Both the position numbers and the translations under genes were made by a program. The notes below the pieces were generated by a model. That model did not search any database, was not told where the DNA came from, and saw nothing but the letters and a program-made list of their open reading frames with translations. A stretch of DNA of 61,626 bases, counting the filler, from Hausera hauseri (Eukaryota), in the NCBI GenBank assembly GCA_046269625.1. It is 8 parts of 8 records of this genome, joined end to end, with 100 filler letters (N's around TTAATTAATTAA, not from the genome) between each part and the next. Parts side by side here need not be neighbours in the genome. Positions count along the whole stretch, not along the records: positions 26,539 to 30,737 come from JBJURY010705771.1; positions 30,838 to 41,333 come from JBJURY010175527.1; 6 more parts are not named here. The stretch is one strand, 5' to 3'. Positions 2,802 through 61,318 of this stretch are shown piece after piece (position 1 is the stretch's first letter; the number at the start of each line of letters is the position of its first letter).

Positions 2802-3113
2802 AATAACACAACCTTTCCTCACATTATTTGTTTACAATCGTGTTACACACAATCAGTCAATCTGTACAAATTAGCAGTGGCCACTGAATGTACGTATGAA
2901 CCCAAACTGTTTCCTGCACTGAGACTGACATTGTTTTGCCCACTTTGTGTCAATGTGTTTAGCAGTGGAAAAATTGTTGTACTTAGTATTCAGATAGTGG
3001 ACTATGAACCGATTATTAATCAAATTACAAACCACATAAATGTTTTAGTAAATCAAAATAATGTACTCTGCACAACAACAGCAAACTATAAATATCATTT
3101 CCGTGTTCATTAA
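2802..3113 (+). CDS. TATA-binding-protein (TBP)-like single repeat, probably 5'-truncated, inside Polinton
   Basis: VNLYKLAVATECTYEPKLFPALRLTLFCPLCVNVFSSGKIVVL vs TBP YEPELFPGLIYRM..P....LIFxSGKVVLTG. Confidence 0.75.
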   Translation, partial: NNTTFPHIICLQSCYTQSVNLYKLAVATECTYEPKLFPALRLTLFCPLCVNVFSSGKIVVLSIQIVDYEPIINQITNHINVLVNQNNVLCTTTANYKYHFRVH

Positions 3114-19571: not shown

Positions 19572-19625
19572 GTCCTGTCCGAATTCATCAGGCAGCGACT
19601 TGTAGAGCCACAATCCTTCAGTCTT

Positions 19626-20226
19626 GGACGTCCGTGTACATTGTCGTGGTAGTGAGATCGGACGTCCGTGTACATTGTCGTGATAGTGAGATTGGACGTC
19701 CGTGTACATTGTCGTGGTAGTGAGATCGTACGTCCGTGTACAATGTCGTGGTAGTAAGATCTGACGTCCGTGTACATTGTCGTGGTAGTGAGATCGGACG
19801 TCCGTGTACATTGGTGTGGTAGTGAGATTGGACGTCCGTGTACATTTTCGTGGTAGTGAGATTGGACGTCCGTGTACATTGTCGTGGTAGTGAGATTGGA
19901 CGTCCGTGTACATTGTCGTGGTAGTGAGATTCGACGTTCGTGTACATTGTTGTGGTAGTGAGATCGGACGTCCGTGTACATTGTTGGGGTAATGAGATCG
20001 GACGTCCGTGTATATTGTCGTGGTAGTGAGATTGGACGACTGTGTACATTGTTGTGGTAGTGAGATTGGACGACTGTGTACATTGTTGTGGTAGTGAGAT
20101 TGGACGTCCGTGTACATTGTTGTGGTAGTGAGATCGGACGTCCGTGTACATTGTTGTGGTAGTGAGATCGGACGTCCGTGTACGTTGTTGTGGTAGTGAG
20201 ATCGGACGTCCGTGTACATTGTCGTG
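19626..20226. repeat. Minisatellite, 34-bp unit x about 18 (GGACGTCCGTGTACATTGTCGTGGTAGTGAGATC), derived from SINE family A body
   Basis: Head-to-tail units without spacers; the last unit runs into GTGCACGTTAAAAATCC...AAATTCTAGGAAAA, homologous to the SINE at 23678-24019. Confidence 0.93.
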
Positions 20227-21057: not shown

Positions 21058-21870
21058 AGACACAAGAAATATCGCTGGTGAAGACAGGCGGCGCAGTAGG
21101 AAAGTAAGTGGAAGTGATAGAAGGAAGCTAAATATTCAATGGGATGGAGACAGAAGCAGGTTAAAGAAAAGAGAGGTGAATATTGAGACCGTTAGGAGTA
21201 AGATTGTTCAAGTGGTTTATCAATCTTTGTTCCACTGTGCGTCAAGCTCTTTCATCGGAAGAGCAGAACCTGATAGCGGTGACAAGAACATCCGCAGTTC
21301 CGGAGTGACCGGGGCTGTTAAAGTTGTTAGACACAAGAAATATCGCTGGTGAAGGCAGGCAGCGCAGTAGGAAAGTAAGTGGAAGTGATAGAAGGAAGCT
21401 AAATATTCAATGGGATGTAGACAGAAGCAGGTTAAAGAAAAGAGAGGTGAATATTGAGACCGTTAGCAGCAAGATTGTTCAGGTGGTGTATCAATCTTTT
21501 TTCCACTGTGCGTCGAGCTCTTTCATCGGAAGAGTAGAACCTGATAGCGGTGAGAAGAACATCCGCAGTTCCGGAGTGACCGGTGCTGTTAAAGTTGTTA
21601 GACACAAGACATATCGCCGGTGAAGGCAGGCAGCGCAGTAGGAAAGTAAGTGGAAGTGATAGAAGGAAGCTAAATATTTAATGGGATGTAGACAGAAGCA
21701 GGTTGAAGAAAAGAGAGGTGAATATTGAGACCGTTAGGAGCAAAATTGTTCAAGTGGTGTATCAATCTTTGTTCCACTGTGCGTCGAGCTCTTTCATCGG
21801 AAGAGCAGAACCTGATAGCGGTGACAAGAACATCCACAGTTCCGGAGTGACCGGGGCTGTTAAAGTTGTT
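21058..21870. repeat. Three tandem 271-bp copies of the Penelope 3' end (GIY-YIG C-terminus + UTR)
   Basis: Units start AGACACAAG at 21058, 21329 and 21600. Confidence 0.93.
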
Positions 21871-23677
21871 GCCCACAGGCGTGGATTGTTGTTGTTTGAT
21901 GCTTCGTAGGTACTCACTGAAACGGTCGGCTAGCCTCCTACCAGTTTCACCGATACATTTCATGTTGCACCGCCTACAGATGATAGCGTAGATGATGTTG
22001 GGTGATAGACATGTGAAACAATCCCGAATGGTGAAGGAGCCACCAGGGAAGTGCAACGAATCGGCTAGTGTGACAAATGGACACGTGAGTCAGGGTCTGC
22101 CACAAAGAGAAGTGCCTCTAAGTGAGTCACGGGAGGTCCGGAGACGGCTACGGACCAAGAGGTCCTTCATGTTACGAGAACGTCTATAAGCCACCATTGG
22201 CCTGTCCTGGAAAACCTCGCGTGTGAGGGATTCAGAGAGCAGAAGAGGGAGATGACGGAAGAGAATGCACTTGACCAAGTACTGTGGGGGTGGAAGGTGA
22301 GGACAAGTTTAACCCTGTCGGAAGAATTCGCCCGCCTGAAGTTGAAGGCAGCTCCTCGTGAAAGGGAGGAGACTCGGGTGAGGGCCGATGATAGAATATG
22401 TTCGGGGTACGACCTCCTGCGGAATAAGTCCATCATCTGATGGGCGTGTGCCATGAAATCTTTGTCGGCTTGACAAAGACGACGTAGGCGCAGAAGTTGG
22501 GAATATGGTAGGGAATAAAGACAGGAGGGGGAGTGGGAGATGTTGTAGAGAAGGTAGCTGTGGGCATCAGTAGGTTTGTAGAACACAATGGTTTAGAGTT
22601 TCGTAGGTTCAATGGAGACGGTGATGTCGAGGAAGTTGACAGAAGTGGACTCTGAGTGGGGGTAAACTTAATCACGGGATGAAAGTTGCTGACAAAGGAA
22701 ATGAAGCGCTCGAGGTCCACCATGGACATGTCCATGAGGCCGATGACATTATCAATGTATCTGCGATACAGAGAAGGGAAAGGGCCCTGGTACTGATGCC
22801 ACACTGGGTGTTCAAAGTGACCCATGAATAAACAGGCGTAGCTAGGTCCCATTTTGGTGCCCATGGCAACCCCACTGATCTGGTCGAATAATTCACCGTT
22901 AAACTCATATGAGATAAGGGTCAGAACCAGCTCAGTGAGGCGGACAAGTGTGGTTGTGGAAACTGACTGGTTAGTCCTTTGATCGAGAAAGAAAGAGAGA
23001 GCCCGAAGATCATCCGCATGAGTGATGGAGGTGTAGAGAGAAAAGACGTCAAGAAGGAAGAGTTTGTAGGTCCGAGAGGGGGAAAGGGATACTGAATCAA
23101 AGATACGTAGGGCGTGGTTGGTGTCCTTTAAGAAAGATGGAAGGTGCTCCACAATAGGTTGAAAGATGCCATCCAGGAAGTCATATATGAGCTGCGTGGG
23201 GCAAGAGCAGGTAGAGACGATAGGTTATCCTGTTTATGGATTTTAGGCAGGATGTAGAATAATGGCTTGCCTAAACAGCTGTCGTGGATAAGTACCTGCT
23301 TGGCAGTGGCGGGGAGGAAGCTATCGGAAATCAAGTCCGTGACAGCAAGGTGCACCTTCTTGTTGTTACCAACAGTGGTGTCGTCGACACGGGGGCTATA
23401 AAAGGTGGCCTTGGAGAGTTGACCGCGCCTTTCTTGCAGGTAGAGATCTTTACGCCAAATCACAATGGCACCACCCTTATCGGCAGGTTTGTTGACAATG
23501 TCGTCACGACGCCGCAATTGGGAGAGAGCCCTAGATTCGATGGAGGAGAGATTAGAATATTTCAGGCGGTGGAATGAGTGGCTCTGGATAGTGTGGACAG
23601 TGTTGTCAATATAGAGGTCTAATGCCCGAGGGACACCTAGAGAACGGGTCCAATTAGACTTACGGGAGAGGAAGCGA

Positions 23678-26599: not shown

Positions 26600-29150
26600 A
26601 TGCAGTTTTTTGAAGACCATTTTACAGACTTCAAGTCAAAGACAAAGAAAGTCATCTTTAATGAGCAGCATAAGCGTGCTTCGGCAGCACAGCCTGCTTC
26701 GACAGCAAAACCCGATGCAGGACTAAAACACATAGCGGCAGCAGCAGTAGCAGCATCAGCAGCAGATGCTACACCAAAAAGCCAGAGACAACGGCCAGTT
26801 GATGTTGCAGCATTAAAGAGAAAAGTCCGCAGATATGTTATTAATGCAACTGGTCAAACAACTCTCCAAGAGTTCCTCTTATACACAAAGGAAGTGACAG
26901 AAGGAATTCTTCAGAACAACATTGCGGAGCTCAAAGTCCATAAAGTGAACATGAAACTGCAGGTCACATATATCAATGTTGATGGCAAAGAATCCAAAAG
27001 AGCATTCAAGATCCAAAATAGTCCCATATTGGAAACAACCAATATAGTAGAATGGCTGCATGAGGTGCACGCGAAGCTGATCCACTAGTCTGGGGAGAGC
27101 CAAGATAAGAAGAGCTGTTGGTCCCTGACAGCCATCAAGAGATTGCTTGTGTATATGCACAAGTACTCCCCCATGCGAGCAGTTCATATATTCAGTTCCC
27201 GGAATTGATAGTTAATAAAAAAGCATGTGTCAATGTCCATAATAGCTCCAACATGTGTTTCGTGTATGCCATTCTATCAAAACTCGTAACGGGTCAAAAG
27301 CACGCTTACCGTGTTTCACTATGTCAGAACATCCAGGATAATTATTATTTCAATTGCATTCCCTTTCCCCCATCAGTGGATGAAGTCAGAAGATTTGAAA
27401 AAGTCAACAACATGTCCATCAGCATCTTTGAATTGAATGAGGAGGATAAATTTTATCCCTTGCATGTATACAATGCGGCATTGAAAGACCATAGGGATCT
27501 GCTTCTTCCAGACAAGGGAGAAAAGAAACGTTATGTTTGGATCAAAGACTTTGAGGGTCTAGTAAGATCCAAAATGACGAAACATCATGGAGAAATAGAA
27601 ATATGCAAACGTGGCTTTTCCAATTTCAGCGGCGATGTAGCAGTATTGAAGCTTGCAGATCACAGGATTTACTGCAACAACAATTATTATATCAGGCCAG
27701 AATTTCACAAGAAGGACTATATTGAATTTAAGGAGTTACAGAAGAAGATCAAGGTCCCAATAATTATCTGTTACGACTTTGAAGCGATCCTGTGTCCAGT
27801 TCAGAGTTGTAGTCCTAATCCACAACACAGTAGCACAACGGCATACCAATATCATGAACTTTCATCATATTGCATGTATGCAAAAGGATTGAACAGTGAA
27901 CCATATCTTTTCAGGGTTGCAGGCGCAGCAGATCATTTTATGAAGTGAATTGAAGGCATGGATCATAGGCTTGAAGATATGCTGCACTAGAATAAGGATA
28001 ACATGAGCATGTCGAAAAAACAAGGAGAATGGCGCAAGGCAACAGTATGTTACTGGTGCGACAAGTCTTTCACTAAGGAGAATTGGAAAGTCAGGGATAT
28101 GTGCCATTTTACAGGCACATATCGAGGTGCGGCCTGCAACAACTGCAATCTACGCTGCAGAACATGTACATATGTGCCTGCAGTGTTCTACAGCCTTAGT
28201 GGCTATGATTCCCATTTCATAGTCCGAGAATTTGGAAATATTGAGGGGAACATTAATGTGATTCCCAATAATGAGGAGAAGTATGTCACATTTACGAAGC
28301 ATGTTGGGAAAATCAGGCTTCGCTTCGTAGACAATTTCTGTTTCATATCGTCTTCACTTGACGGTTTAGTGAAGAACCTCCCTGCAGAAGAACTCAAGGA
28401 GACGAAGCGGTTCTTTCCCACTGCATTTGACCTAGTCGAAAGGAAAAGCGTGTTTCCCTATGATTACATAACATCATTGAAAACACTGGATGAGCCCATA
28501 TTGCTGGCCAAAAAGGACTTTTACAATATCTTCTTTGATTGCGATATCAGTCTGGGATGCATTTCAATGCTGAACGTTAAGAAAATACAGCGATATATAC
28601 CTCAAGACTGTCGTGCTGCTTCTAACGGATGTCTTTGAGAGTTTCAGGGATATTACTATAAAGGGACATGCACTGGATCCATCTCATTTCTTTACGGCTA
28701 CAGGGATGAGTTGGGCGGATATGCTGAGATATACAGGTGTCAGGCTGCAGATCATAAAGGATTACGACATGGTCCTTATAATCGAGAGAGGCATTAGAGG
28801 TGGAATATTCCAGGCCATTCACTGGTACAGTGAGGCCAACAACAAATATATGGCCGAATACGACCCAGCAAAGGCATCCTCATATATATTATACCTGTAT
28901 GCCAACAACCTATATGCTTGGGCAATGAGCGCCCCATTGCCATATTATGACTTCAAGTGGACCCAGCATCCCGAAAACATCCCTATACTGGACTTAGATC
29001 CCACTGGAGATACTGAATACATACTGGATATATGTTAAATATCCGGCTTCCATCCACACAAGGCATGAACAGCTGCCTTTCCTGCCTGAGTACAAGCCTA
29101 CGCCCCATGGAAGGCATAGAAAGCTGCTCTGCCGTCTGGATAATAGGGAG
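26600..29150 (+). pseudogene. Polinton pPolB (second family), fragmented and 3'-truncated
   Basis: KKACVNVHN...CFVYAIL, CYDFEAIL, RDMCHFTGTYRGAACNNCNL, LSGYDSHFIV, SSSLDGLVKNL, RKSVFPYDY, LLLTDVFESFR, RGIRGG, ANNLYAWAMS. Confidence 0.95.
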
Positions 29151-30170: not shown

Positions 30171-33100
30171 GCGATGGAAAACAGTAACAATAATTGTGTG
30201 TTATGCATTATTGTCGTGTAATTTTATAACATTTATGACCAATCAATTCTGGAAACAACTGTTTAGAGTGACGTCATTCCTTAATGTTCAGTTTCAGTAA
30301 ATCTTCTTCTTCTCCGACGATCTCTCAATCTTGCAGCTTTAGAACATTCAAAAACAAACTACACTCATTTGTTAAACTATTATAATTATGTCTGCCAGAT
30401 AAGTAGACTTGGGTTACAGACATCCAACAGTTTATATGATGGTTCGAGCCCATATGCATTCATCTATTCTGTGCGTGTGAGATTAGAGTATCTGCATGTA
30501 TTTAAACTTATGAACACGTTTACTTAATTTCAACGCTTATTTTACTTATGCAATGTTCATTTGAAGTGTTGTTGAGTGTATTGAACTGAATGTGTGAGAT
30601 GAGAGTATGTGCATGTATTTTAAACTTATTAGTATGAATACTTAATTTCACTGTTTATCTTCTCGTATAATGTTCATTTGAATTGTTATGTTTGTTGTCT
30701 AGGGCAGAAATGTAAAAAGGCTAAGTGCCTATTTCTCNNNNNNNNNNNNNNNNNNNNNNNNNNNNNNNNNNNNNNNNNNNNTTAATTAATTAANNNNNNN
30801 NNNNNNNNNNNNNNNNNNNNNNNNNNNNNNNNNNNNNTCTTTTCATCCTTTTTTGAATTTCCTGCATTTTTATTGGCTGTTTATTATTTCAACTTTGAAT
30901 TGAATTTAAACTTTGATATTCGTTTAAATTCCTCCTCACAGTAAGAAAGGCCAGAAACGAATATGAAGAGAAATTACAACTAATGGAAGTCTATCATGGA
31001 TTAAGAGAACCACAAACCGAAGAAAAATATGCACTGGCATTAAACAGTGCTAATATGAAACGTAAAAAGTCTATTTCCCGAGAAATAACTTAGTCAGAGA
31101 AACCAACGACATCTGAGAATGTAGACTTGGACGCATAATCCGAGAAGTACAGCCCAGGTAAAACACAGATGAAATCAAAAGTGAATTTATTGGTCCTTTA
31201 GTTCTCAAAATAACGAAGAATAAGGGTAGAAGCCCATCGCCTAATAGAAAATTAAAGACTCGCTCGATGTCCCCCGTCAAAAGAGACGTAAAAGAAAAGA
31301 AGGCTTTTATGCCGCTGTTCTAAGAAACGACTCATCCTTAGAGACGGCCATTACTCCTAAAAAGAACCTAAAAACGTTGGAAACACCAGAGGCGATAAAC
31401 ATTAATGACGAAATCAACGAAATCTGCCCACTTCCCGCTAGTGAGAATAAACAGAAGACAATAACGATTTTGATACGAGGAAATGGAAAGTTCGACGTCC
31501 ATGGAAGAATGCTGAGGAATTAAATCGAATGAGAACCAGATGTCATGATTCGGAAGTACTCCAACATAATTTAGAAAGACTTAAACAGATCAGTAAGCAA
31601 ACAGATATATCGGGTAAAAAACAACAATTTGTGGAAGAACTATGAGTTTAAAATTAGGTGGCTAAGGAAAGCTCGAAAAAGCAATCGAATTGAGACAACT
31701 GGAAGAGGTGCCACAGGATACGTTGACAAAATGCAACCATAAATTATAGTCATGGAGTAAAAGTGGAGTCGAATTTTCGGAAGGATGGAATAAAGAGGAA
31801 GATAGTGTCGGCGTGAGAGTCGCTGAAGTACAGATATTACTATCCACTTTAGAAGCTAAACACCAGGTGAAAAGAGTGGTCCGTAACTTAGAACGCAAGG
31901 TGGATGAAATACGTTATGCAATGATCAATCGGCTTAGAGAAAAACCGGTCAATAACCGGAGACATCGATTTAGAAATGCTGGACATAGTTCCAGTAGATA
32001 TTTCTCCATTATTGGAAAAGATAAAAATTGCCTTTGCGAACTCAGACGATGTGCGGACTTAGAGAGTCGCATTAAAATGGAGAATAAAAAAACATCGCAG
32101 ATCAGTAGTTTAAGAAATCTAACCATGTTTACGAATAATTAAGAAACAAAATGTAATAAAAGCTTGAATCATAGAATTCGACGAATATAAGGACGAGTTC
32201 AACTATATTTAACCANNNNNNNNNNCATATAAAATGTTAGACAAGGCAATATTAGCAAAACCGATAATCGCCAACCAGTTGTAGGAATGTTCCGAATTAA
32301 TAATGAGAATATATAAATTAATAGAGGACCGTAAAAAAGAATTTCCGAAAAGTGAACCATCTATAAGAAAACGACTAGAAGGGACACGTAACTTAGATAA
32401 GATACAAGCAAGATACGTATCCAAACGCAATTCGAAGCTTTGCGATGATTAAATTTTATGAAGAAGAAGAAGAAGAAGAAGCAAAAAACCACAATATTGG
32501 AAGAGATTTATAAAATGATCAAAGAGACAAACTTTATAGAAAAGCAAAATATGACTTGTAATTTTTATCCCAGATTAAGGAACATCCGACTAGAAGTAGT
32601 CAAACAATTAACAAATAAGCCTATCTACGAGATTTCAATACACAATATCGAAACATTGGACATTTGTTCAGGACATAGACCGGCCTTAATAGAAGCAGTG
32701 AGATTCTTGTATAAGCCACAAGAATGGATAGCCGGCACAGATCAAAATTGCCATACCGAGTTGAAGAAAATAAGAAACGACCGACATCTTAGTTTTGAAG
32801 AGTTTAAATTTGTGAAGAAACTGCTCGATGCAATGGATCCCGATTTAAAAGTCATAAATGAAATGTACGACTTAGCCTTCTTATTAGTAGAAATGGCGGA
32901 GACCAGTGACGTGAGGATGAGGCAATTGATGCGTAAATTACAACAAGTTGAAGAAACGTGCATCAGAACAAAACAAACAGCAACGAGGCTAGACGAATTA
33001 GTAAAAGGATTCGAAAGCTACAGGAGTAAATACGCTTTTACCGAATCACAGATCAAAAATAAGCAAGAGTTTGTGCAGAGATGGCGAAGGGACGTAATTA

Positions 33101-33599
33101 TTGAACTAACCGATTATCACCAGAAAGGATTCATCAATTCTAATGAATTAGGCAAACTACTGAAAATGATTCAGCATGCCTGTTGAAACGGAATAGGTTT
33201 CAGGACTACGCAGATGAAAGAAATACAACAAAAATTGAAAGAATTTCGAGAAATTGCACAAAAAACGAACACAGTCCTAGAAGACTATGGACTTCCCGAT
33301 ATTGGGAATAAACCAGAATGGGATGCTTATTTAGAAGCAATAACGGCCGAAAATCCAATAACTCAAGTACACCTAAATGAAATAGAAATGTATCTGCAGA
33401 ACAGGGAATTCAATGTAGAGATGCGCCTGGACTCAGCGTTAACCGAAAAGGAATAGATTGAATTAATTAATGTAAATATTATCGAAAACAAGCTCAGACA
33501 ACTCATACCAATTTTGACTAAATTATCCAGTGAAAACATGATTTACAACACGGTGCCGAAACTCTTAATAAAGAAGTATACGGAAAATTTGAAGAATAA

Positions 33600-33835
33600 A
33601 CCTGAGGCAACGATGACATTAATGATATCATCCGAGTGGATGGACGAAAAAGAATGTGAGTTGACCACTTATTCTTACGTAAAGGACGTAAGAGAATGGT
33701 TATTAAATAATGGTGGAACAAATGAGGTAAATTACAGATTTTACTTTAGAGGAAGAATACTCGACGATGTAGAACAGTTAATAGACGTCGGAATTATCCC
33801 CGACGAAACAAATTGGATAGTAGTAACAATAGCCA
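33600..33835 (+). pseudogene. Ubiquitin-like domain within Gag extension (copy 1)
   Basis: MTLMISS..EKECELTTYSYVKDVREWL...NYRFYFRGRILDDVEQLIDVGIIPDETNWIVV fits the ubiquitin pattern (TIENVK..QRLIFAGKQLED..L.DYNI) over about 72 aa. Confidence 0.7.
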
Positions 33836-34557
33836 ACAAACAGACGAAATAAGAAGCTACGCGAATGGCTAAAACGGAATAATGTGTAGGGAAAATTATG
33901 AGAGTAGGAGATGCTTCAATTTATTTCGAGTATTTACAGACGGATGATAACAAAGAACAATATGATAAAAACCTAGTACCGATAAGTGGAATCGCCACCC
34001 ATGTTCCAAGGCCCAAACGCCCAGTCGGTAGGCCTAGAAAAACCCGAGAAGAAGTTGACTATAACGGAGAATTAATTAGAGAGCTGAGACACATGTCAAT
34101 TCTTACCTTTAGCACAGACAATGAAGAATTAAACGAGTTAATGAAAAATTCAATACGTGTCGTAAATTATTCAAGCCTTCGAGGGGATACATTAGATGAT
34201 AAAGAAAAGGCGATATTTAACTCAGCTAGAACGATGAAAAATTCGCGTTTCAAGCTGTCAAAAAGTAGTCTAACTGACGACGCAGTGGTTGAGAAAATTA
34301 TGGTGGAGAATAAGACAGAAGAGCTAAGAAAAGTATTATTGTACTTGGCAATTAAGAAAAATCCAAATCGCGAATACGAACTAAATCGAGCTACAAGTAT
34401 GGCGTGAAAAGCAGCTAGAAAGCTTCCATGTGAAGTAAATTGGCCAAAATTATTTGACAAAGAAGAAGACAAGAGGAACAGTAGTAATAATGGACTAGGA
34501 GACATCATACGGAATTTAACGACAACGGATAATAACAACCGGAAGAATGAATCTAAT

Positions 34558-36745
34558 TGGTTAATTAGTTTGCTCACCATAATGATGCTGATAAAACAAA
34601 TGGGCGCTGTCACCATCTACGATTGCGACAGATTTAAGCTTGGACAAAAATACTCACTAATGGACTTAGAAGCATGTGAAGACGTCAGACCACACAAATT
34701 AGAAACAAAGCAGAAGAGTTATTTCCTATACCAACAAGAGTTGATATGTTTAGATGGCATGGAATGCATGCTGAGACGATCTCGTAGTATTTTCCAATGT
34801 GGACTAATGCACGGACACTCCTCGATAATGAAACCAACGACCCCTCCAATTCCAATGAATTTGGAAATACAACACTACAAGCAGGCCCGAGAAACCGGAA
34901 GGCTGAAATGGGATAGTATGAAACTAGAAATGCAGCCCGGAAAGATAATCAGAGCATAAAAGGTAGTAGTTGGACGGCTAGATATGAAAAACGGACACTG
35001 TAGTGGAGCGGAATACGACACAGGAAAAGGATTAGAAGAAAACATAGTAGTAGTGGACTTTTATGAATCGGAAATGCAAGTCCAGAAAGTGATGTTCCAT
35101 AGCGTCACTAAGCTATATACGAAGAATCAAAAATGTCACATACAGGACGGCACCTGTAACTTCAGAAGCTCTGTCGTCACATGGGAACCACCCACTGGAA
35201 AAGGCTGCAATTTTATTAAAATTAAGGAATTGAAGTTTAATGAAACTACCAGGAAGCGATACGTATACAAGTACGATATCAGTTCAAGAGCACGTGAAGA
35301 TGTATCAGAGCATCATACACCTACGATATTAATCTCTGATCAACATGGATTGAAATTCATAAAAAGGGAAATGATTTCACGTTGCGAATTAATAATGTTT
35401 ACCACTAACTACGAAGCGTTCCTTGTCGTAGAAATGGAGATAAGCGCGAAAACATACAACTTAGAAACGCAAGACATTAGAATCGAAGATTATCTGAAAA
35501 ACCGAGACGATTTTTTCTATTATAAAGGACAAGTCGGGATAGCCAAGCTATACCATAAAATGATAACTAATGATTGTAAATTAGATACGGAAATTATGAG
35601 GACAAAATTAGCCCTTATTTATGCGAATCCTGAGTTAGCTTCACCGATCATTCCCATGAAAGAAGGAATTTTTGGTCGGGTTACTGGTGAAGTTCTACTA
35701 ACTTATGAATGCGAGAAAAGAGATGTACCAATTAATGTCGAAGAAAAGCGATGTATACAAGAGCTACCTGTAATCTACCAAAACACCCCGCGCTTAGCTA
35801 TGCCTCTCACTTGAGTGTTGCTCGATAATGCGACACAACCAACCATTCTAAAGGATTGCAAGGCAAGTTTGGGCGAACCGATGTTTAGGCATAGCGAAAT
35901 AGATTGAGTTAGTCTACCTAATGGAGGCGTCACTACCATTTCTAAAAAACTAACTGGGACTAATTTAGCAAAAGGAATTACCGACGACAAGTTACAGGAT
36001 ACATTTTAAAAAGGCATTTACCGGCCAAAAGAGATCGAAGCTTTTCGATAATTTCTTGCTTTTCCACGACAGCGAACACAAATTAAACCGAGCTATGGCA
36101 TCAGTAGTAGACGATACCCGCTACCAGACTAAATGGGAATCCTTGCTTGGCGTGAACTATTACCATCGAGTAACCACTGAAATACTCTACAAAATATGGG
36201 GAAGATTTTTAATTTTTGGACAAGCTGCATCTGGATTCTTAGCAGTCTATTTCATGGTACAACTGGTAAAGGCGGCAATTCAAGCGGTTATAAATGGGTA
36301 TGAAATATTTACGCTAACAGGATTTTCTTGCAAGATCTTAACCGCGATTATCACACCGTTTGGAAAAATGCTAAAAGCATACGAAGAAAATCGATGGGAA
36401 AATGACATTGAACGCCATGTCGGCTATTATAATTACAAACATCGAACAAGACCCATATTTCGACTAAAACGCAAGGTTAAGAAACCAGTGACACGAACAA
36501 ATAACTCCGATGATGACGATCCTAAGGGAGGAGATGCGATCCTCAGACAAAATAGACACAAAATGTATTCAGTAATCAGAGCACCCTTACCTATCATACC
36601 GCCAACGGCTCCGATATACGAGGATTGCGACAAAACATCTATGATGTCAAATAGATCGGCATTCTGTCAGAAACCCTTCAGATATGAAGATCCTTACTCT
36701 AGGAACAAAACAATATGGAGTATTAAAGAAAATGCAAATCACTAA
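34558..36745 (+). pseudogene. Chuvirus-like (class III, gB-related) envelope glycoprotein with signal sequence, TM region and cytoplasmic tail
   Basis: Hydrophobic WLISLLTIMMLIKQMGA then IYDC..YSLMDLEAC, C..RSIFQCGLMHGHSS, GHCSGAEY, C...GTC......W....GCNF, LYHKMITNDCKL, GRVTGEVLLTYEC, CIQELPVIY, IWGRFLIFGQAASGFLAVYFMVQLVK..INGY; cysteine spacing as in chuviral G. Confidence 0.88.
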
Positions 36746-37039
36746 TTAAAGACGAGCAGATGACCATGGGATATTGTACTCCCCGAGAATAGCTCGCAAT
36801 ATAGAGACCAGGTCAACAGTCTGGGGAACGCAAGGAGTGAAGTCGTTCCAAAATCCAATAGTACAAGAACCATTAATTAGAAACAATACGAATAACATGG
36901 CAGTTAACGACTTATACCCTAACGAAGAACTGAAACAGCTGACTGAAAATATTATTTCATCACCAGAGATAACGATAAACGGATATAAAATTTCTTCGAT
37001 CAAACGACCAAAAGACGTGTCGAGTTGCTATGGGTCAGT

Positions 37040-40000
37040 TATGAAAGGAAGACCCTTCACAAAAGTTACCATTGAAGATTGGGAGGTTTATGCCTTAATC
37101 GACACAGGATCGAAAAATCGTTTATCAAATTAGAATTAATACCGCCGACACTACGAAAGCATCTGCAGCCAGCATCATCATCAGACCAGGCAGCATAGGA
37201 GCCTTCGGTCAAGAATCCAAACCAAAGTTTAAATGGAGTCCTCTAGTCCAATTAATGGGCCAAATCCTTGACACAACTTCGCCATAATGGACTAGCTTAC
37301 CGACGACGTAGTATTAGGATGTGATATACTGAAACAATTACCTAATGTCACAATAAATTTACAAACTGGAAAACTACTTGAACTTGGACCAGTGAAAGGG
37401 TTTAAAACCATGAAAGAAAGGAAACATGGAGAAGTATGGATCCCGTCAACGAAAATATTCTGCCCAGAATCAAAATGATAATTTATGCTCAAATCCGCGA
37501 AGATGACCAACCAGTATATTTTGAACCACAGGAAGACGTTAATCCAAATATCATACTTAGTAACATTTTGAAAAGAGTAACGACAGGAAGAGTACCAATC
37601 AGATTAGTAAATAATGCACCAACTCCCGTAAAATTTTACGCCAATACTCATTGGGCCATACTTATAAAGTATCGGCAATAACAATTGAAGAAAAGCCATA
37701 CAAATATTCTAAATTTCCACCTCATGTCGAAACGAAATTTTCACCAGAAGCGTACTGCCAATTTTACGAATTATTGTGCAAATATAAGTCGATTATTGCC
37801 CAAAATTAAGAAGATATAGGCAGAGAAAAAACGCTAAGATTGACGATCCCATTAAAAAAGAAACCTGGCTCCAATGACGAAATTGATTCGGAAGAGCAAA
37901 AGATGCCAAAATGGTACCCACCGCCTCATTCATTAAGGCCAGAAATAACTAAAGAAGTGGAACGCATGTTAAAGGCCGACATAATACGACCAAGCTACCG
38001 ATCTTGGTATTCGCCAACACTTATGGTCAAGAAAAAAGATACCACAAAACATCGATTTTGTATAGATTATTGAGCCCTAAACACACTTGTGATGAAAGAC
38101 TCATTTCCACTACCATCAGTAAAAGAAGCTTTAGACAGATTATCAGGAGCAAAATGGTTTACCACGCTAGATTTACAGTCAGGATATTGGCAGGTAGAAA
38201 TTGAAGAAGATGATCGTTATAAAACAGCATTTAAAACGCACGATGGAGTTTACGAATTTTATGTCATGCCGTTTGACATAACAACCGGTCCCGCCATATT
38301 CACCAGAATGATGAATAAGATGTTAATTGGACTAGATCACGCATTCGCATATTTAGACGATGTAATGATAGCATCAAAAACTGAAGACGAACATCTAAAG
38401 GACATCGAGAATACTCTTATGCGATTAGAACAAGCAGGATTGAAGCTGAACCCAAAGAAATGTAAATGGGCACAAAACGCTGTATCTTATCTAGGACATA
38501 CAGTCGGAGAAGGAGGATCAAAACCAGATAAATCTCTATTAAATAAAATATCGGATTGCATTGAACCCCAAAATCAGAAAGAATTAAGGAATTGGTTAGG
38601 CTTATGCGGATATTATGCCACCTACGTACCAGACAATTCGAAAATAAATGCACCATTATATCGGCTATTGAAAAAAGGCATAAAATGGAAATGGCCCGAT
38701 GTTGAACAGAAAGCATTCGACGAAATGAAGACAATTTTAATAAGTGAACCAGTGTTAAAATACCCCGACTTCAGCTTACAATTCATAATTAAAACAGACG
38801 CAAGTAAAGAAGGAATCGGTTACAAATTGGCTCAGAAACGAGAAGACGAAGAACTGGAACATCCAATTGCATATAGAGGACGATCGCTTAAGAAAGCTGA
38901 GAAAAACTATTCAGTCACTGAATTATGGACACTAGCCGTGAAAGAAGCCTTGAGACATTTTAACGTTTATGTCTACGGACAGAAAATTATTATAGTTACC
39001 GGTAATAAAGCTTTTACCACGCTAAAGGGACGGGCTAATAACCCGACGTGTAGACTGAATCGATGGATTGAGGAAATTTCACGGTACAATATTGAATTTC
39101 AGTATAAACCCGGAAGTAAACATGTAGACGCAGACGCCTTATCAAGACTGAAAACAAAGACAAGTACGATTACAACCATGAAGAAAGCTCAACTGGAAGA
39201 TTTAGTCGAGCGACAACGGACCTTGACACTAAATAAAACAATCAAAATTTCTGCCGAACAAGCTAAAGATAAAGTTATCCAACAAATAGTTAAATTTTCC
39301 GAGCAAGATGAGATACCAAAAGGACGTCAACTAAAGAAACACTTACAGAGACACGGACACAAATATTATGCATCGAGTCCAGATAATATCCTATATTACG
39401 AACGCAAAGGACGGAAACTGGTAGTCATTCCGAAAGGATTGCAACCGGAAGTATTAATGGCTGAACACGACTCACATTTAGTTGGACATATGTCGTGGAA
39501 GAAAACATTAGAAAGAATATTAAACAAGTATGACTAGCCAAGCGTTTATATCGACGTAAAGAACTGGGTAGACGCTTGTGAAGTCTGCGCAACAAAACAA
39601 AGAAAGGTGAAAAACTATATAGCAGAATTGAAACCGATCGACGTACCAGATAGACCTATGAAAGCTATGTCTATGGATATAGTAAGACCTTTACCTACGA
39701 CTCATAAAAATAATAAATACATATTGACATGCCTAGATCGTTTGACACACTTTGTGGAATTAATCGCACTGATTGATCAAAAGGCAGAAACTCTAGCAGA
39801 CGCAGTAGTGAGGAAAATCATTTGTAGATATGGACCGCCAGATCAAATACGAACCGATAGAGGAAGAAACTTTACAAGCGAATTATTTGACAAAATTTCC
39901 AAAATCTTCAAAATCGAATGATTAACTACTACCGCGTATCACCCTCAGTGCAACGGGATGGTCGAACATATGAATGCCACAGTCATACGAGTCTTATCAA

Positions 40001-40460
40001 CCGTAGTAGCGAAGGATCAAAAGGATTGGGATGAATTTTTAGAAGGAAAATAATTCGTTATTAATACTACTCCACACCCCGCCACAGGATTTACACCATT
40101 TTTATGATGTATGGACGCGAAGCAATTTTGCCTACGGACTTAGGAATGACTCCGTATTACGCAAATCCAAAAGATTTAGAGCCAAATTTCGCAGAAGTCC
40201 TACAAACGCGATTACAAAAATGTTGGAATATAGCCAGGACACTTACTCTTGAATATCAAGAACAGTTTAAGAAACAATACGATAAGAAGGGAATTGGATC
40301 TATGTACAATACCTAGTCGCAAAGAAAGGCACCTCATTAAAACTTACGCGTACTGGACGAGGACCTTACGAAGTTATTCGCATCAAACCAACTACTGTGT
40401 ACATTAATAAAAATGGTAAAGAAGAGGTAGTATCTATACAGAGAGTCGTTAAAACAGAAA
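37040..40460 (+). pseudogene. pol: Ty3/Gypsy pol (PR-RT-RNase H-integrase with GPY motif)
   Basis: ALIDTGS; RFCIDY, LDLQSGYWQV, KTAFKT, YLDD; TDAS, NYSVTEL, DADALSR; H..GH..CEVC, MDIVRPLP, TDRGRNF, TAYHPQCNGMVE, GRGPYEV. Confidence 0.97.
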
Positions 40461-40539
40461 TAAAACTTGAAAAACGCTATAATCTGCAATCTAGTTCGCA
40501 TCAAGATAAAAAGAAAACAAAAACGTCCTCTATAATCAA

Positions 40540-41333
40540 TAGACCAATATCTTACATTCAAATAGTTTTAGCATTATCGCTAATTGTCTCCTATATCCCG
40601 AGAACACAAGCTAGAGGGTGGTACGATAGTTACGGAGTTCGAACAGTCGAAGGAAATTAAAGACAAGAATATATAAGAAGATTACAAGCAATAAGGATCC
40701 ACTGTTACTCGCCTAACTCCACATGCGTCGGATTTAAAACACGGAAACTACATCGGAATTCTGGAAGGATCCAAATTGTCTTAGATGATGTAATAACAAG
40801 AGAAACAACGAATTGTGACTTGGAGTCCTGAGAACGTACGCAATGTTGCGACATAGATTTCGGACATCAAGAAGTAAAACGGAACGAAATATTGCGATCC
40901 ACTGACCCAGACATAAGATTACTAAACGAAAACATCCAGCGAATCTCCGTGAATAAGAAAAGACAATGTATTCAAGTAAATACTCGGAGGGAGCTAACCG
41001 TCAGTCGGGAAATCAGTATCGTGTTCGAGGCAGTAATAGGACTAACTCCGAAAATAGAATATTGTTCCATTCGGGCAGGTGTACAACATCCGTGTTGTAA
41101 AATACCCGTGAACCAAGAATTTAAAATAAGATTTGACTTATACGAAATACGGCCTAATCAACCAAGCATACAATTACGAATCTACTATCCAGAAAACAGA
41201 ATTAGGAAAATTGCAATAAAAACCTGGACTAAAAAGTCGACCGCTCGAATTATCACGACGAACAATATATCTAAAACAAAAATTGAAGACATACCTATCA
41301 GATATTCGGTCCATCAGGATAGAATAGTGTTCT
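40540..41333 (+). pseudogene. Post-integrase ORF led by a signal-peptide-like segment (putative secreted/surface protein), open to contig end
   Basis: YIQIVLALSLIVSYIPRTQA in frame with the integrase C-terminus, followed by Cys-containing sequence with two point stops. Confidence 0.55.
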
Positions 41334-46443: not shown

Positions 46444-46553
46444 NNNNNNNNNNNNNNNNNNNNNNNNNNNNNNNNNNNNNNNNNNNNTTAATTAATTAAN
46501 NNNNNNNNNNNNNNNNNNNNNNNNNNNNNNNNNNNNNNNNNNNCGCCGAAAAT

Positions 46554-49500
46554 ATGGCAGAAAACCAGGCAGTAGCTCAAAAATTGGATATTTTTACATT
46601 TGACTCGTTAAATTTGCCCGAATATGACGGAGATCCGGACGGACTCAGTGAATTCTTAAGGACATATAAGTTGCATGCAGAAGGTGCTGAACTAGCAGCT
46701 AACGTAATGATCAAGCATCTATCCTTATATTTAAAGAATCTGGCCGCTGATGCCTATAGTGAACTCACAGATGACAAAAAGAAAACTTAATCCTCACTGG
46801 TAGGAGCCTTAAATCGAAAATTGTTACCGACTGTAACTCCTCAGCAGAAATTCATGGCTTTTCAGAATAGAGTACAACAAAAGGGTGACTCGATAACCCA
46901 ATTCGCTTTTGCATTAAAGGAATTGGCAAATAGTTACGTAAGCACAGTAAGAATAGCAAACATAACAAAGGCTAAAAACGAAGCAGAACGTGAAGCCGCA
47001 GAAAAGGCAAGTTCTCCTGATTTAGACGTCATGATGATGACGCAATTAATAAATGGTATTTGGGCTAAATACATAGTAAAGCAATTGATTCTTGTACACC
47101 CCGAGAATTTTTATAGGACATTGCAATTAGCCCAAGATTTAGAAATGGCATTGGCCCGATATACTAGAGACAATGACAGAAATGACAGAAACAATGATCA
47201 CGGCGAACAAAGCGATAGAGATCGAAATAATAGAAGTGATAGACGATTTAACAGGAATTATGGGGATCGGAACAAGAACAGTAATTATGATCGCAGAAAC
47301 GACCGATACAGTAATCAGAATTTTGATAATAGTCGAAATTATTTTCCTAGTAAATCAAACTATCATATGGATAAAGGCCTGGATTTCTCCAAAAAATTTA
47401 ATCGGCAGAATGATAGCCGAAATTACGATAATCGCCAATATGGAGACCCTAGACAGACTCCGTCGCAGCAAAGCTATAATAGAAATCCAATTAGATCGAA
47501 ATTTCCGTTAAACGAAGATGGCAGACAGAGAATCGGTAAAAATGGCAACTTAATTTGTTATACATGTGGACAAGAAGGACACATAACGAGGTCCTGTCCA
47601 AATCCGCGAAGTGTCTCGTTTTTCGAACCTAGTAAAACTAATGTAATTAAAAATGAAAATTTAGAAGCAATTTACGGTGTTCGTAGAGACACAGGTATGA
47701 TTATTGAGATACAGGATTTACGACGTTTCTTAAAGGCTCAGCCCGTAACTAATGACCCCAAAGTTTTAGTGGCTGTAAACGAATATGAGCACAATTTACG
47801 ACTAATGGAAGTTTACCATGTCCTGCGTGAACTAGAAACGGAATATGAACGTTCTATTGCCCCTCCAAGGCTTACTGATATGGCACGGAAAAAGAACGTT
47901 CCTACCATAAACAAAAAGTTAGATAAAGTACAAAAGCCTGAGACACCGGGCGAAGCAGATTTTGATGTAGAACCTAATTATACCATAAAAACGGTATCTA
48001 AGGAGGCAGAGGTCAAAGAAAAAGAAGAATTTCTTGAACCACTTATACTTAAAATTACCAAGAATAAAGGCCGTAGCCCATCGCTGAGACGGAAACGTAA
48101 GGATCGTTCGAGATCCCCGATGGGTAAGAAGCCGGACACAAAGAGACATGCGGAAATCGCGTTAGAGAGTGACACTGAGTTTGATTCGAACACTCCTGAA
48201 ATTAAGGAAATGGGTAGCGAAACGGTATCCATGAATGAAATAAATGATATATGTCCTTTACTCACTAGCGAATAAGAAGCGGAACAGAAGGAGAAACTCG
48301 ATCCCAAAAAGTGGAAGATCAGACGCTCGTGGAAAAGTGCAGAGGAGTTAAAAAGAATGAGGACAAATTGTCGAAACCCAGAGGTATTACGACAGAACCT
48401 AGAGAAACTCAAGGCAATGAGCGAACAAGTGGATATTTCTGGTAAGGAACAGCAGTTTGTAGAAAGACTATATAAAAATATGAAACTATGTAGTGAAGGG
48501 AAACTAAGTGAAGCTATAGATTTAGATCAGCAAGAAGAAGTGTTAATAGAAACACTAATCCAGTGGAAACGCGAATTAGACCGCTGCATGAAAGGTGAGA
48601 CGAAAACTCCAGAGACGTGGGATAAAACTACCCAAAGCATTGAAACTAGAATCAATCAAGCCCAGTCGTTATTAAATACACTAGAAGCTAATCCGAAATT
48701 AAAAAGAGTAGTACGTAACTTAGAGCGTGTTATGGATAAAATTAGATTCATCGTAGTCGACAGACTAAAAAAGAAGCCGGTTAAAGAACGAACTGAGGTC
48801 GATCTAGAAATAATGGGTATACATGCATTAGACATTCCGCCCTTAATGGAAATGTTAAAAATCGCTTCTACTGCGACAAGGCAATACACCAATCTGGAAA
48901 ATCGTATTAAAATTGAAGTCGAAAAACGGTCGCAAATATATAGTCTAAAGAGTAGAATTATGCACCCAAATAACGAGGAAATCCAGAGAATAATTATAGC
49001 TTGTATCCTCGAATTCGACGAATATAAAGACGAGTTTAACTATGCCTGCCGGATCACCGATTTTATTAGAGGTCCGGATGATGAGCTAAAAGACGCCCGC
49101 AAAATGTTAAACAAAGCTATGTTGGCAAAGCTAGAAATCTCTAATCAATTAAACGAGTGATCCAAAATAATAACAAGGTTGGGTGGATTAATAAACAGTC
49201 GGAAAAACGAATTTCCGGAGAGCGAACCTACAGTGAAGAAGCAATTGGAAGAAGACGCCCGAAATTTGGATACGATGAAAGTAGAAATTGATATTCGAAC
49301 CCAATTCAAGTCACTGCGTCGGTTGAACTTTATGGACAAGAAACAAGAAATGATCATACTAGATGACATATATAAAGCGATAGAAGAAACAAATTTTACA
49401 CAAAAACGAAATCGGATTCATGACCTCTATTCAAGTTTGAGAAAAGTCCGCCTAGAAGAAATTCAAAATTTGACCACCAAGCCTATAGAAGAAATATCGA

Positions 49501-51230
49501 TCCGTGATCTTAAGACGTTAGACGTTTGTTCAGACTACTTGTCGACCCTCGAAGAGGTAGTAACATTCTTACATCAACCCCAGGAAAGGGTGGCTGGAAC
49601 TGATCAAAGGTACCATACCGAACTAACTAAAATAAGGAATGACCAACATCTTAATTTCGAAGAGGACAAATTCGTAAAAAGGTTACTCGACAAAATAGAT
49701 CCAGACTCAAAAATTATCAATGAGATGCATGAATTAGTACTACTAATGGTGGAAATGGCAGAAATCAGTGATGAGAAATTAAGACAGATATTGCCACAGA
49801 TACGACAAGTTAAAGAAACTTGCATTAAAAACAAACAAAGAGCAATGAGATTGGACGAATTAACTAAAGAATTGGAATCATATAAAGTTAAGTATGCTCT
49901 TATAGAAGCACAAAAGAGTGACAAGTCGCAATTTGTGCAAAGATGGCAAAGAGACGTAGCTTCCGAGTTAATTAATTATCAGGAAAAGGGATTTATATCA
50001 GCCGAAGAACTATGCCAGCTGCTAACCGTATTACGCCGAACTTCCGAAAATGGACGTTGTTTTCGAACCATTCAGAGTTACAGTGCAACAAAAACTACGA
50101 GAATTAAGAGAATTAGTAAAGGAAGCAAACTTAGCCCGGCCGTTAAGAACCCCGGAAGCCGATTTCGGATTACCCGAAGATGAGAACGAATGGGACGCAT
50201 ACCTGAACGCAATAATCGCCGAAAGTCTGAAAACTCCAGTACACTTGAACGAACCGGTAACTAGCCCGCCAGATCAGAAATTCCGTGTAGAAATGCTTCT
50301 AGATCCGGCACAGACTGAAAAGGATCTATTTAGGTTAATCAATGTAGACCTCACTGAAAATCACTTAAACGGTTGATCCCCACTCTAACCAAATTGGCCA
50401 GGGATGGTACAGTCTATAGTGCTGTGCCAAAACTTTTAATCAAGAAATATACAGAATTCTTGAGGACAAGGCCCGAAGAGGCAATTAAAGTAAAAATAAC
50501 GGCTGACTGGATGGATGAAAAGGAGCAAGAGTTCACTACGCACTCCTCTGTAAAGGATGTATTACTATGGATGAAGAACAATGGTTACGCCCATGAGCTA
50601 GACTATAGACTCTATTTTAGAGGAAGGATACTGGGCGAGTCGGAGTTATTGATAGAAGTTGGAATTATTCCCGATGAGATAAACCGGTTAGTGGTAACCA
50701 TCGCTATTGACGAAACAAAGGAGGAGGCTATAAGAAAAGCGAAAGCAGAACAGCAGGTAGGACGCATAATAGGAGTAATAAAAAATTAAATTAAAGTAAT
50801 ATATTTTGAGTGCCTGCAGACAGACGACGATAATGAGCAATATGATAAAAATTTGGTACCTCCAAACGGTAGTGTCCCCGTTCCAACAAAACCAAAGCGA
50901 CCTGTGGGTAGACCACGGAAGACACGGGAAGAAATAGACTATAATGGAGACCTAATTAAAGAATTCAGACAATTGTCCATACCGACCTTTAGTGCGGATA
51001 ATGAGGAACTAAACGAATTGATGAAGGATTTGATACGAATAGTAAATCACTCTAGTCTAAGTGGTTATGTATTGGATGAGAAAGAAAAGACTATAGCGAA
51101 CGCCGCAAAGGCGATGAAAGATCTTCGGTGTAAATTATCGAGAAATACCTTAAGCGAGGAAATAATAATTGAGAAAATTATGATAGAAAATACTACAGAG
51201 AAATTGAGAAACGAGTTACTATATCAGTAG
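46554..51230 (+). mobile_element. gag: Large Ty3/Gypsy element copy 2: Gag (capsid, CCHC knuckle) plus a roughly 1200-codon extension with UBL and AT-hook
   Basis: LPEYDGDP..FL..Y, RVQQKGDSITQFAFALKELA, CYTCGQEGHITRSC; one frame from 46554 to about 50050 with three point stops; YRLYFRGRIL UBL; KRPVGRPRK. Confidence 0.9.
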
Positions 51231-51547
51231 TAGAAAAATGCCGGTCCTAGCTCACCCCCGGCCCCCCCATGCAGCCAATCCGAAGGTTGCTTGATGCGCA
51301 CACCCGCACGGACGGGTAGATTCTACGACGTATATTTCAAAAAACACACCGTGCACGGTGCACGGTGCATCCCGGAAGCAGGGGAAGTGCACGAAAAAAG
51401 CGGATGTAAGAAGGAAGTGGTGCACGGAGGTGTGTGGCACATAGAAANNNNNNNNNNNNNNNNNNNNNNNNNNNNNNNNNNNNNNNNNNNNTTAATTAAT
51501 TAANNNNNNNNNNNNNNNNNNNNNNNNNNNNNNNNNNNNNNNNNNNN

Positions 51548-55700: not shown

Positions 55701-56412
55701 GTTTCGCATGCTTGTCCCATTTTCATTTTCGGAAATAATGTCATATATTTTGGCGATGGATTAAGTACTTCAATAGGAATTGTTAATCCATTTGTATTGA
55801 CACAGTAATGTGGAAATATAAGTCCATTTAAAAGAATTTTCTATACGAATTCAATAACACTGTTATCTGGAAATATTGTTCTTACATGAATAACCATCCT
55901 AGAATTCGCTAGTATTCTCTCAGTGTGGCCTATCCAAATATCCGTGTTTCATAATCTCTGGGAATGTCCTCATTATTTGGACAGATAAATCCTGATTTCA
56001 GGTTTTCGTAAAACATTCCTATAATGCATCGAGGATCTAAATTATTCCTTATATCCAACGTTGCTTTATTCCTTTGTCCAAAAATCATATGTTCACATTT
56101 CCAATATCCATACAGTTTTAAACATTGTTGAAAAGCTGAAGTAATGCCCGTACATTCTTTTAGGGCTATCTTTATTTGCAATTGGAGTTCGTTGGGTATC
56201 ACATATTTGGCTATTAAAAAGACGCTAGCGCCAAAGCCTATCATAGCATTTATATCGAATGTGTAGAAGTGGCTAGTGGAATGCGGTCGATTATCTCTTA
56301 TTAATTCAAGAAATGTTAGTACGTCATTATGATCGTCTATATGTAGTTCCATCAAGGTATAACTGTCTGCATAATAATTTGTTATTGTTCCACTTGATAG
56401 TATAACTGCCAA
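52780..56412 (-). mobile_element. pol: Large Ty3/Gypsy element copy 3: pol (PR-RT-RH-INT), decayed
   Basis: AMIGFGASV (degenerate PR), PKWYPP and TTKHRLC shared with copy 1, LDMQSGFCQI, TDAS, EHNSHLAGH, TSYHSQCNGMVERMN, QGPYKV. Confidence 0.93.
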
Positions 56413-60603: not shown

Positions 60604-60751
60604 CCCAATGGGTGATTTGTATAAAAAACTTTTTTGTTTAAATATTTAAAGAAATAAAAACTGTTGTTTTGCCGTTCGACGGTCTTTACAAAACTATTGT
60701 TTTATAATTGCATGTATACATATTTTTCGAGATTTTCTTGATAATCAAAAT

Positions 60752-61318
60752 ATGTCCGTTGTTTATGCTGTAATTCTACGAGGTACAACCGTACTGGCAA
60801 ATTACTCGAAATTTCTTGGAAATTTCGACTATATCATATTGGAGTTAGCTAAACGGAGTTCTGAAGAAACGAAGGGATCATGCCAACATTTGGATTACAT
60901 TTTAAATTTCATTGCGGAGAATAATGTGACATACGTTTGCGTGACGGATTGGGATTTCAGTCGACAGGCGGGCTTTCAGTTTTTAGATATGATCAATGGA
61001 AGGTTTAAGGAAAAATATGGAATGTTCATTGAAACGGCGCTGCCCTACTCCATGACTCCAGAATTTTGCAACATAATGAAGATTTACATGGAGCATTTCA
61101 ACAATAATAAATTAGCAGCACTAGAACAATTTGTTGACCATCTTACTAATAAAATGAAACAGAACCTTCAACGGGCAATACAACGAATTGATGCCTTGGA
61201 TCACGATCAAAACGCCACTAAACAATCGGCTTCATTAACAGATAAACTCCATCACATTCATATTGCTATGGATCTGTCGTATAACTGCCCGTTTATTGAA
61301 CAGTCGTTTGAAATGTGA
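60752..61318 (+). CDS. VAMP7: Intronless VAMP7-like longin R-SNARE, divergent, no TM anchor
   Basis: VYAVILRGTTVLA..GNF, YVCVTD.DF.R..F.FL..I..RF...YG...TALPYSM..EF; partial SNARE helix VDHL..KM.QNL....QR. Confidence 0.88.
   Translation: MSVVYAVILRGTTVLANYSKFLGNFDYIILELAKRSSEETKGSCQHLDYILNFIAENNVTYVCVTDWDFSRQAGFQFLDMINGRFKEKYGMFIETALPYSMTPEFCNIMKIYMEHFNNNKLAALEQFVDHLTNKMKQNLQRAIQRIDALDHDQNATKQSASLTDKLHHIHIAMDLSYNCPFIEQSFEM

Follow-up and report, generated by a model that had tools for sequence, protein, structure and literature searches.

A decayed Ty3/gypsy element of Hausera hauseri with a fusion glycoprotein between Gag and Pol and a second predicted surface protein behind the integrase

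The window analysed here is a stretch of 61,626 nucleotides from Hausera hauseri (GCA_046269625.1), composed of eight contigs joined by N44-TTAATTAATTAA-N44 spacers at 13501, 26439, 30738, 41334, 46444, 51448 and 56796. The spacers are artificial, so that the adjacency of parts across them carries no meaning. One retroelement family is represented on two of the contigs, as copy 1 (30838-41333) and copy 2 (46544-51447). Copy 1 is a decayed Ty3/gypsy element and contains, in this order, a Gag extension, a signal sequence, a fusion glycoprotein (G), protease, reverse transcriptase (RT), RNase H and integrase. The last kilobase of the contig (40.5-41.3 kb), which is absent from the preliminary description of this DNA, was found to be coding too, and a second signal sequence and ectodomain are predicted there. 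The features of copy 1 from the first signal sequence onwards, and copy 2, are as follows.

34555-34608, plus strand: internal signal sequence 1 (predicted; hydropathy 2.05), with predicted cleavage just before the mature start of G
34609-36370, plus strand: Monjiviricetes-type fusion glycoprotein G, ectodomain and anchor (PF24664, tblastn of intact relatives, hydropathy)
36371-36940, plus strand: cytoplasmic tail of G and linker, with late-domain-like PTAP at 36602 and LYPx3L at 36912 (next frame)
36945-37700, plus strand: aspartic protease (DTG at 37101) and linker (tblastn of residues 1110-1242 of the relative P0124, E 5e-7), with several frame changes
38026-39087, plus strand: reverse transcriptase and RNase H (RVT_1 E 1.6e-33, RT_RNaseH_2 E 2.2e-31)
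39427-40490, plus strand: integrase, with H2C2, core, GPY at 40361 and YNL at 40478 (Integrase_H2C2 E 8e-14, rve E 6e-14)
40553-40600, plus strand: internal signal sequence 2 (predicted; hydropathy 2.35), in frame with the integrase C-terminus
40601-41333, plus strand: second predicted ectodomain, 244 residues, cysteine-containing, ended by the contig edge before any anchor
46554-51227, plus strand: copy 2, with a capsid-like domain (46608-46928), CCHC (47556-47603) and Gag extension; G is not reached

The glycoprotein was recognised by PF24664 (Monjiviricetes_fusion), which matches it in two parts (E 9.4e-30 over profile positions 6-424 and E 7.7e-15 over 497-604). Hydropathy places a signal-like segment at 34555-34593 and the membrane anchor at 36212-36268, and a hydrophobic segment upstream of G is present in most relatives. 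The gene is interrupted by point stops, and its frame changes once near 36,050-36,085. No match to G was found among PDB sequences, and its putative class III assignment comes from the available text of PMC13524379 and from family knowledge. Downstream, protease, RT, RNase H and integrase with the GPY/F motif follow in the order of a Ty3/gypsy Pol; every named best match of the window RT is gypsy-type (35-46% identity), the RT tree discussed below having no non-gypsy outgroup. The decayed pieces of the protease region gave no Pfam match, and the linker after the protease is likely a dUTPase-like candidate by analogy with the available description in PMC6431247. Two frame changes were seen in the integrase near 40.1-40.3 kb. 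The succession claimed in the preliminary description, from Gag extension through internal signal and glycoprotein to protease and RT-RNase H-integrase, is thus borne out by PF24664, DTG, RVT_1 and rve.

A search of a representative library with G returned 342 proteins at E <=0.001; the best 17 were taken, and 14 of these were scanned with Pfam, three fragments being omitted. In ten of the 14 closest relatives a protease lies 3' of G in the same open reading frame (ORF), in five RT does too, and in none does RT precede G, in agreement with the earlier claim that the gag-env-pol order is ancestral and did not arise by secondary insertion. CCHC was found before G in six of the 14. In the relative L003, a single complete ORF of 2,693 amino acids holds CCHC (341-356), G (583-1181) and protease (1274-1362), followed by RT, RNase H and integrase; behind the integrase come one segment resembling a signal and one resembling an anchor. 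CCHC, G and RT lie within one ORF in P0126 and P0136, and P0024, which was found via its RT, has G, protease, RT, RNase H and integrase in one ORF. L001, L003, P0126 and P0274 are intact natural relatives, the polyprotein of the last being 4,844 amino acids long. A metagenome scan gave at least 3 related loci among 595 candidates; no relatives of G were found in viral contigs, and none of P0126 in prokaryote genomes.

Several of these proteins have features of their own. P0274, P0130 and P0124 contain multiplied aspartic protease domains in one polyprotein, with up to seven Pfam stretches in P0274 in addition to ankyrin and C2H2 fingers. A separate downstream ORF of L001 (10617-12107) encodes a DEDD exonuclease (RNase_T E 1.4e-5), and an exonuclease-like stretch upstream of G was noted in P0133, by eye only. 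P0126, an animal-type retroelement polyprotein, was deposited under a Flavobacteriaceae metagenome bin, probably through contamination.

In a quick tree of 47 rows, in which 28 of 85 stand-alone G proteins were included, the window G fell within the group of polyprotein-embedded G and apart from these 28 (SH-aLRT, the Shimodaira-Hasegawa-like approximate likelihood ratio test, 98). The earlier label "chuvirus-like" holds only at the level of the family; the window G itself stands outside the stand-alone proteins. It might be supposed that an ordinary gypsy element received G by a secondary viral insertion, or that the contig is a chimera of repeats: the contigs are short, the source is repeat-rich, no listed record covers the whole stretch, and chuvirus-like G fragments often adjoin fragmentary gypsy copies according to the available text of PMC10084718. 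However, G shares the frame of the Gag extension and is nested among polyprotein-embedded G, and a module of a helical and a ubiquitin-like (UBL) domain is common to the same relatives. Repeats within the contig do not exceed 40 nucleotides, and none flanks G as the long terminal repeat (LTR) or target site duplication that had been named earlier as a sign of insertion. A divergent contig of the public sequencing run X1 bridges 34333-34570. We regard secondary insertion, or a chimera, as very unlikely.

The ORF pieces starting at 32458, 33214, 33514, 33898, 34570 and 34984 share one frame, as had been stated. Between 32449 and 35904 the coding frame has 7 stops in 1,152 codons, whereas the remaining two have 136 and 90. 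One continuous frame cut by point stops, as claimed, persists to about 36,050-36,085; beyond that it is broken by frame changes, which in copy 1 as a whole lie inside G, in the interval from the G tail to the protease, across the protease region and at the integrase end. Because of these changes, the claim of one ORF leans on the intact relatives. The intact form of the family was very likely a single polyprotein, its length reckoned from the sequence at no less than about 3,900 amino acids, close to the nearly 4000 proposed earlier, although copy 1 itself is not one ORF. The word "giant" applies only in relative terms, given the length of P0274 and the 4,873 amino acids of ORF1 of the planarian element Burro (PMC6431247, available text).

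The comparison of the two copies points to the decay of a once-open frame, as had been proposed. Copy 2 aligns to 32231-34319 of copy 1 at 64% identity. Two blocks were compared: all 4 stops in them were found in one copy only, and the identities by codon position (0.71/0.78/0.46 and 0.73/0.81/0.40) are lowest at the third position, which, judged from these alignments, is a pattern of purifying selection. The capsid and CCHC ascribed to copy 2 were recovered as a capsid-like start and a CCHC match; both are missing from the copy 1 contig. Copy 2 ends about 0.2 kb upstream of the signal sequence and is for this reason uninformative on G. No LTRs were found in the copy 1 or the copy 2 contig, both of which end within coding sequence.

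Another explanation is that Gag-G and Pol lay in different frames, connected through programmed frameshifting or readthrough, the frame changes near 36.7 kb being original. In copy 1 the G tail and the protease are in different frames, a single stop (3058-3060) lies between Gag and the G signal region of the relative L002, directly before the latter, and gag/pol recoding is common in Ty3/gypsy elements. On the other hand, G is joined to the protease in one ORF in ten of the 14 closest relatives, copy 1 is also frame-shifted inside G and integrase, and X1 copies differ by small indels near the boundary of G tail and protease; the last two points fit private decay. Original recoding is thus considered unlikely. 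The stop of L002, which may be due to decay or to readthrough, means that not all relatives are one ORF.

From run X1, 28,188 contigs map to copy 1, covering 30 of 30 bins, and the majority are less than 95% identical to it. On the strength of their number, divergence and bin coverage, copy 1 can be described as a single old member of a large family of repeats that includes G and the 3' kilobase. The host is probably an animal, judging by the other repeats and by the RT relatives. Within that kilobase, the integrase frame passes GPY and then, 39 residues on, YNL; in 8 of 13 relatives YxLR lies at 41-44 residues. A hydrophobic segment follows at 40562-40600, and one contig of a further run, X2, covers 40443-40615. 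The frame of the second ectodomain has 2 stops in 242 codons, as against 20 and 17 in the other frames. These two stops are missing from at least 94% of the overlapping X1 depth, with 2 indel rows across 1,134 bases, and the post-integrase frame is open in other copies.

A protein in this position was found in relatives as well. The integrase end could be placed in 108 of 128 proteins with an RT; 40 had a tail of at least 100 residues, with a hydrophobic segment in 17 of the 40. Twelve of the 128 were judged by reading to have a signal-like and anchor-like pair after the integrase, and in the RT tree all 12 lie within the group that bears G. Six of the seven G-bearing relatives that reach the integrase end extend into signal and anchor, the exception being P0024, and six further 5'-truncated proteins with the same pair group with the G-bearing ones in that tree (100/98). 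A 90-residue repeat with two cysteines is common to ten of the 12. Its profile matched 46 PDB sequences, all of them proteins containing fibronectin type III (FN3) domains by name and each weakly (best E 0.005). The upstream unit of L001, modelled from the repeat alignment, had a predicted local distance difference test score (pLDDT) of 87.9 and matched FN3 scaffolds in Foldseek (E 1.4e-4, probability 1.0, template modelling score ~0.6); viral FN3 proteins were also matched. The shared repeat is accordingly modelled as an FN3 fold. A complete cassette of signal, FN3-like domain and anchor is also present between the protease domains of L001 (4736-5320), 5' of RT and in addition to the post-integrase one, and likewise in P0021.

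The Gag extension of copy 1 lies upstream of these features and comprises the following parts.

30950-33400, plus strand: N-terminal part of the Gag extension, likely coiled coil (38-70% piecewise identity to the translated copy 2 in tblastn)
33463-33594, plus strand: small helical domain common to relatives (hidden Markov model, HMM, from 5 relatives, E 3.7e-4 in a six-frame search of the window)
33595-33849, plus strand: ubiquitin-like domain (structures of ubiquilin, ISG15, ubiquitin and SUMO are matched by a profile, at best with E 2.5e-5 for a single-domain chain)
34012-34041, plus strand: AT-hook-like motif (alignment; same sequence in copy 2)
34100-34470, plus strand: helical segment, matching the Bcl-2-like region of relatives by alignment position only

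The first part is decayed and frameshifted before 32449, with a gap of 10 N at 32216-32225, and no Pfam family reaches the cut-off in it. For the small helical domain, no informative PDB or Pfam match was obtained; a likeness by eye to the TFIIS N-terminal domain was considered and found no support in these searches. An HMM of the helical and UBL domains from 6 relatives detects copy 1 and copy 2 (E 8e-11 and 6e-8), its boundaries having been taken from an alignment in which the window sequence was included. GRP motifs similar to the AT-hook-like one lie upstream of G in P0124, P0128, P0130, P0134 and P0274. A Bcl-2-like domain was undetected at 34100-34470 by an HMM from 5 relatives, and the relative P0127 has a weak Pfam Bcl-2-like match (E 9.6e-4). 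No Pfam match to MATH, BIR or ankyrin was obtained in the window pieces scanned.

Taken together, these results favour, with a probability of roughly 0.7, the reading that copy 1 belongs, in decayed form, to a Ty3/gypsy family of high copy number in which Gag, G, protease, RT, RNase H and integrase follow one another and a second ectodomain, led by a signal, comes last, and that intact copies likely produce one membrane-threaded polyprotein that would build enveloped particles. Several observations, including the stop in L002, weigh against it. The window ectodomain has no Pfam family and no homologue among 15 candidates; compared with the FN3-like repeat, its HMM score lies below shuffled controls and its hhalign probability is 0.2%, and the position of its anchor falls past the contig end. 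The ectodomains of L003 and P0133 do not match the FN3-like repeat either. Of the two junctions raised in the preliminary description, the one before G is crossed by the divergent X1 contig, and the interval from G tail to protease is spanned by no contig among the listed X1 pieces. The RT tree was built from 46 of the 128 rows (a first tree, in which the window joined an aberrant long branch, was dropped). In it the window RT is a long branch, and its placement on the G clade's side has a support of only 85/81. The approximately unbiased (AU) test rejects the window RT inside the FN3-type core (p 0.011), a group named after the tree had been seen. The window G, unlike its RT, falls with that core (96). 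A position of the window RT with P0133, P0136 and L003 was not rejected (p-AU 0.41) and is a candidate placement. The disagreement between RT and G on the exact place of the window element could reflect long-branch error or recombination.

In the proposed mechanism, the Gag portion would remain cytosolic, as its topology suggests, and signal 1 would thread G into the lumen of the endoplasmic reticulum, where signal peptidase would cleave. The anchor of G would bring the chain back to the cytosol, and it is proposed that Pol for this reason stays attached to the tail of G until released by the protease. The element's protease and signal peptidase would together separate the parts of the polyprotein. 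Motifs of the PTAP/YPxL type recruit the endosomal sorting complex required for transport (ESCRT) in retroviruses, and those in the G tail may do so for budding. In 15 relatives YPxL occurs 7 times in 2,252 G-tail residues, compared with 8 times in 31,362 other residues, and P(T/S)AP twice in tails compared with once elsewhere; the 15 proteins are kin, so that the counts are not independent, and two tails are overestimated in length. Signal 2 and the final anchor would display the second surface protein, which most likely serves to attach the particle to its target cell, and G would fuse the membranes. The ubiquitin-like and AT-hook-like cargo of Gag likely engages host chromatin or the ubiquitin machinery. 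Such a single-chain design implies an unusual assembly, in which Gag, Env and Pol would be made in equal amounts and Pol would enter the particle via the Env tail.

The role of the post-integrase protein admits of two interpretations. It may be an accessory protein that modulates the host, such as a receptor decoy or a factor in immunity or interference that acts on the producer cell, and not a means of particle attachment, the architecture being unchanged. The domain is highly variable, FN3-like in ten of 12 relatives and replaced by unrelated ectodomains in L003, P0133 and the window; L001 and P0021 have the extra cassette upstream of their last protease, P0024 has no post-integrase protein, and the family gathers other host-like cargo (UBL, Bcl-2-like, ankyrin). 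A role on the particle is favoured by the fact that the post-integrase position is retained across divergent RT lineages and that FN3 is an adhesion and receptor fold; moreover, being in one chain with G and Pol, the protein would be made in equal amounts and reach the same membrane. An accessory role is a serious candidate, although its odds stay somewhat below even. A division of labour between fusion and attachment is known from herpes- and paramyxoviruses. A two-component entry machine of that kind can be suggested tentatively here, with a class III fusogen before Pol and a fast-swapping attachment protein after the integrase (FN3 in most lineages, another ectodomain here), and with the budding motifs shifted out of Gag into the tail of Env; in this specific form it is rather doubtful. 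If true, it would amount to a herpes- or paramyxovirus-like split of fusion and attachment in a retrotransposon. As a separately evolving, conserved surface protein, the product encoded behind the integrase is a concrete candidate for cell targeting by env-bearing retrotransposons.

Other elements were observed elsewhere in the window. Decayed pieces of a protein-primed DNA polymerase B and an endonuclease VII lie at 4993-5856 (minus strand) and 27991-28638 (plus strand), and these are presumably Polinton-type elements. An intronless ORF of 222 amino acids at 60650-61318 (plus strand), Longin and synaptobrevin-like and without a homologue among 56 candidates, is possibly a VAMP7-like retrocopy. 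Decayed integrase and RT fragments from other retroelements were found at 53221-54224, 54986-55840 and 22433-23224 (all minus strand), and tandem arrays at 19624-20226 and 21058-21870, with periods of ~34 and ~271 bases.

The preliminary description did not know this arrangement from described families; its novelty is not supported, as it has been published both for Burro and for the GAG-ENV-POL elements considered below. Burro/GYPSM1 is a giant gypsy-like element of planarians, more than 30 kb in total length, whose ORF1 has env in frame between gag and pol, called "the first case" in the available text (Arkhipova and Yushenova 2019, PMC6431247). Its env matches mononegavirus fusion glycoproteins, and Smc-like, Ubi/SUMO-like and BCL2-like cargo lies between CCHC and env (PMC6431247, same text). 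The window element resembles it in having Gag extension and G in one frame, with a whole gag-env-pol ORF in relatives, and in the ubiquitin-like domain upstream of env. It differs in its smaller cargo, with no MATH, BIR or ankyrin match and no detected Bcl-2-like domain, and in having one CCHC instead of the two or three of Burro. Section 7 of PMC6431247 names no post-integrase membrane protein, Burro being compared by description only. Its layout is like that of Burro, but the window element is not assigned to Burro, because the scanned pieces contain none of MATH, BIR and ankyrin.

Nematode endogenous retroviruses (NERV) reportedly possess a continuous gag-env-pro-pol ORF. Their ENV/POL order is flipped (Sacco et al. 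2022, J Gen Virol, as cited in the available text of PMC13524379). The same text describes "ancient errantiviruses" of several clades with the order GAG-ENV-POL and an HSV/gB-type ENV (HSV, herpes simplex virus) described as chuvirus-like (Chary and Hayashi 2026, PMC13524379); its GAG-ENV-POL rows comprise 36 nematode, 9 flatworm and 10 bryozoan elements (55 in all). As far as this description goes, the window element shares with them a Ty3/gypsy Pol, env between gag and pol, and an env of the PF24664 family bounded by signal and anchor, and it differs in that those elements are intact whereas the window copy is decayed. The terms "fibronectin", "ubiquitin", "accessory" and "Burro" do not occur in the main text of that paper. 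Anakin elements of the BEL/Pao type carry a chuvirus glycoprotein (Dezordi et al. 2020, PMC7642597, available text), so that the same broad glycoprotein family was taken up by an LTR element there too. Their Pol is of the BEL/Pao type, whereas gypsy-type proteins are the best RT relatives here, and the window G lies outside the stand-alone G group. No published description of a post-integrase membrane protein was found in the non-subscription literature searched or in the main text of PMC13524379, and the conserved post-integrase surface protein is the part to which this applies. The gene order of the window element is already published, and the window adds one decayed family to the group described.

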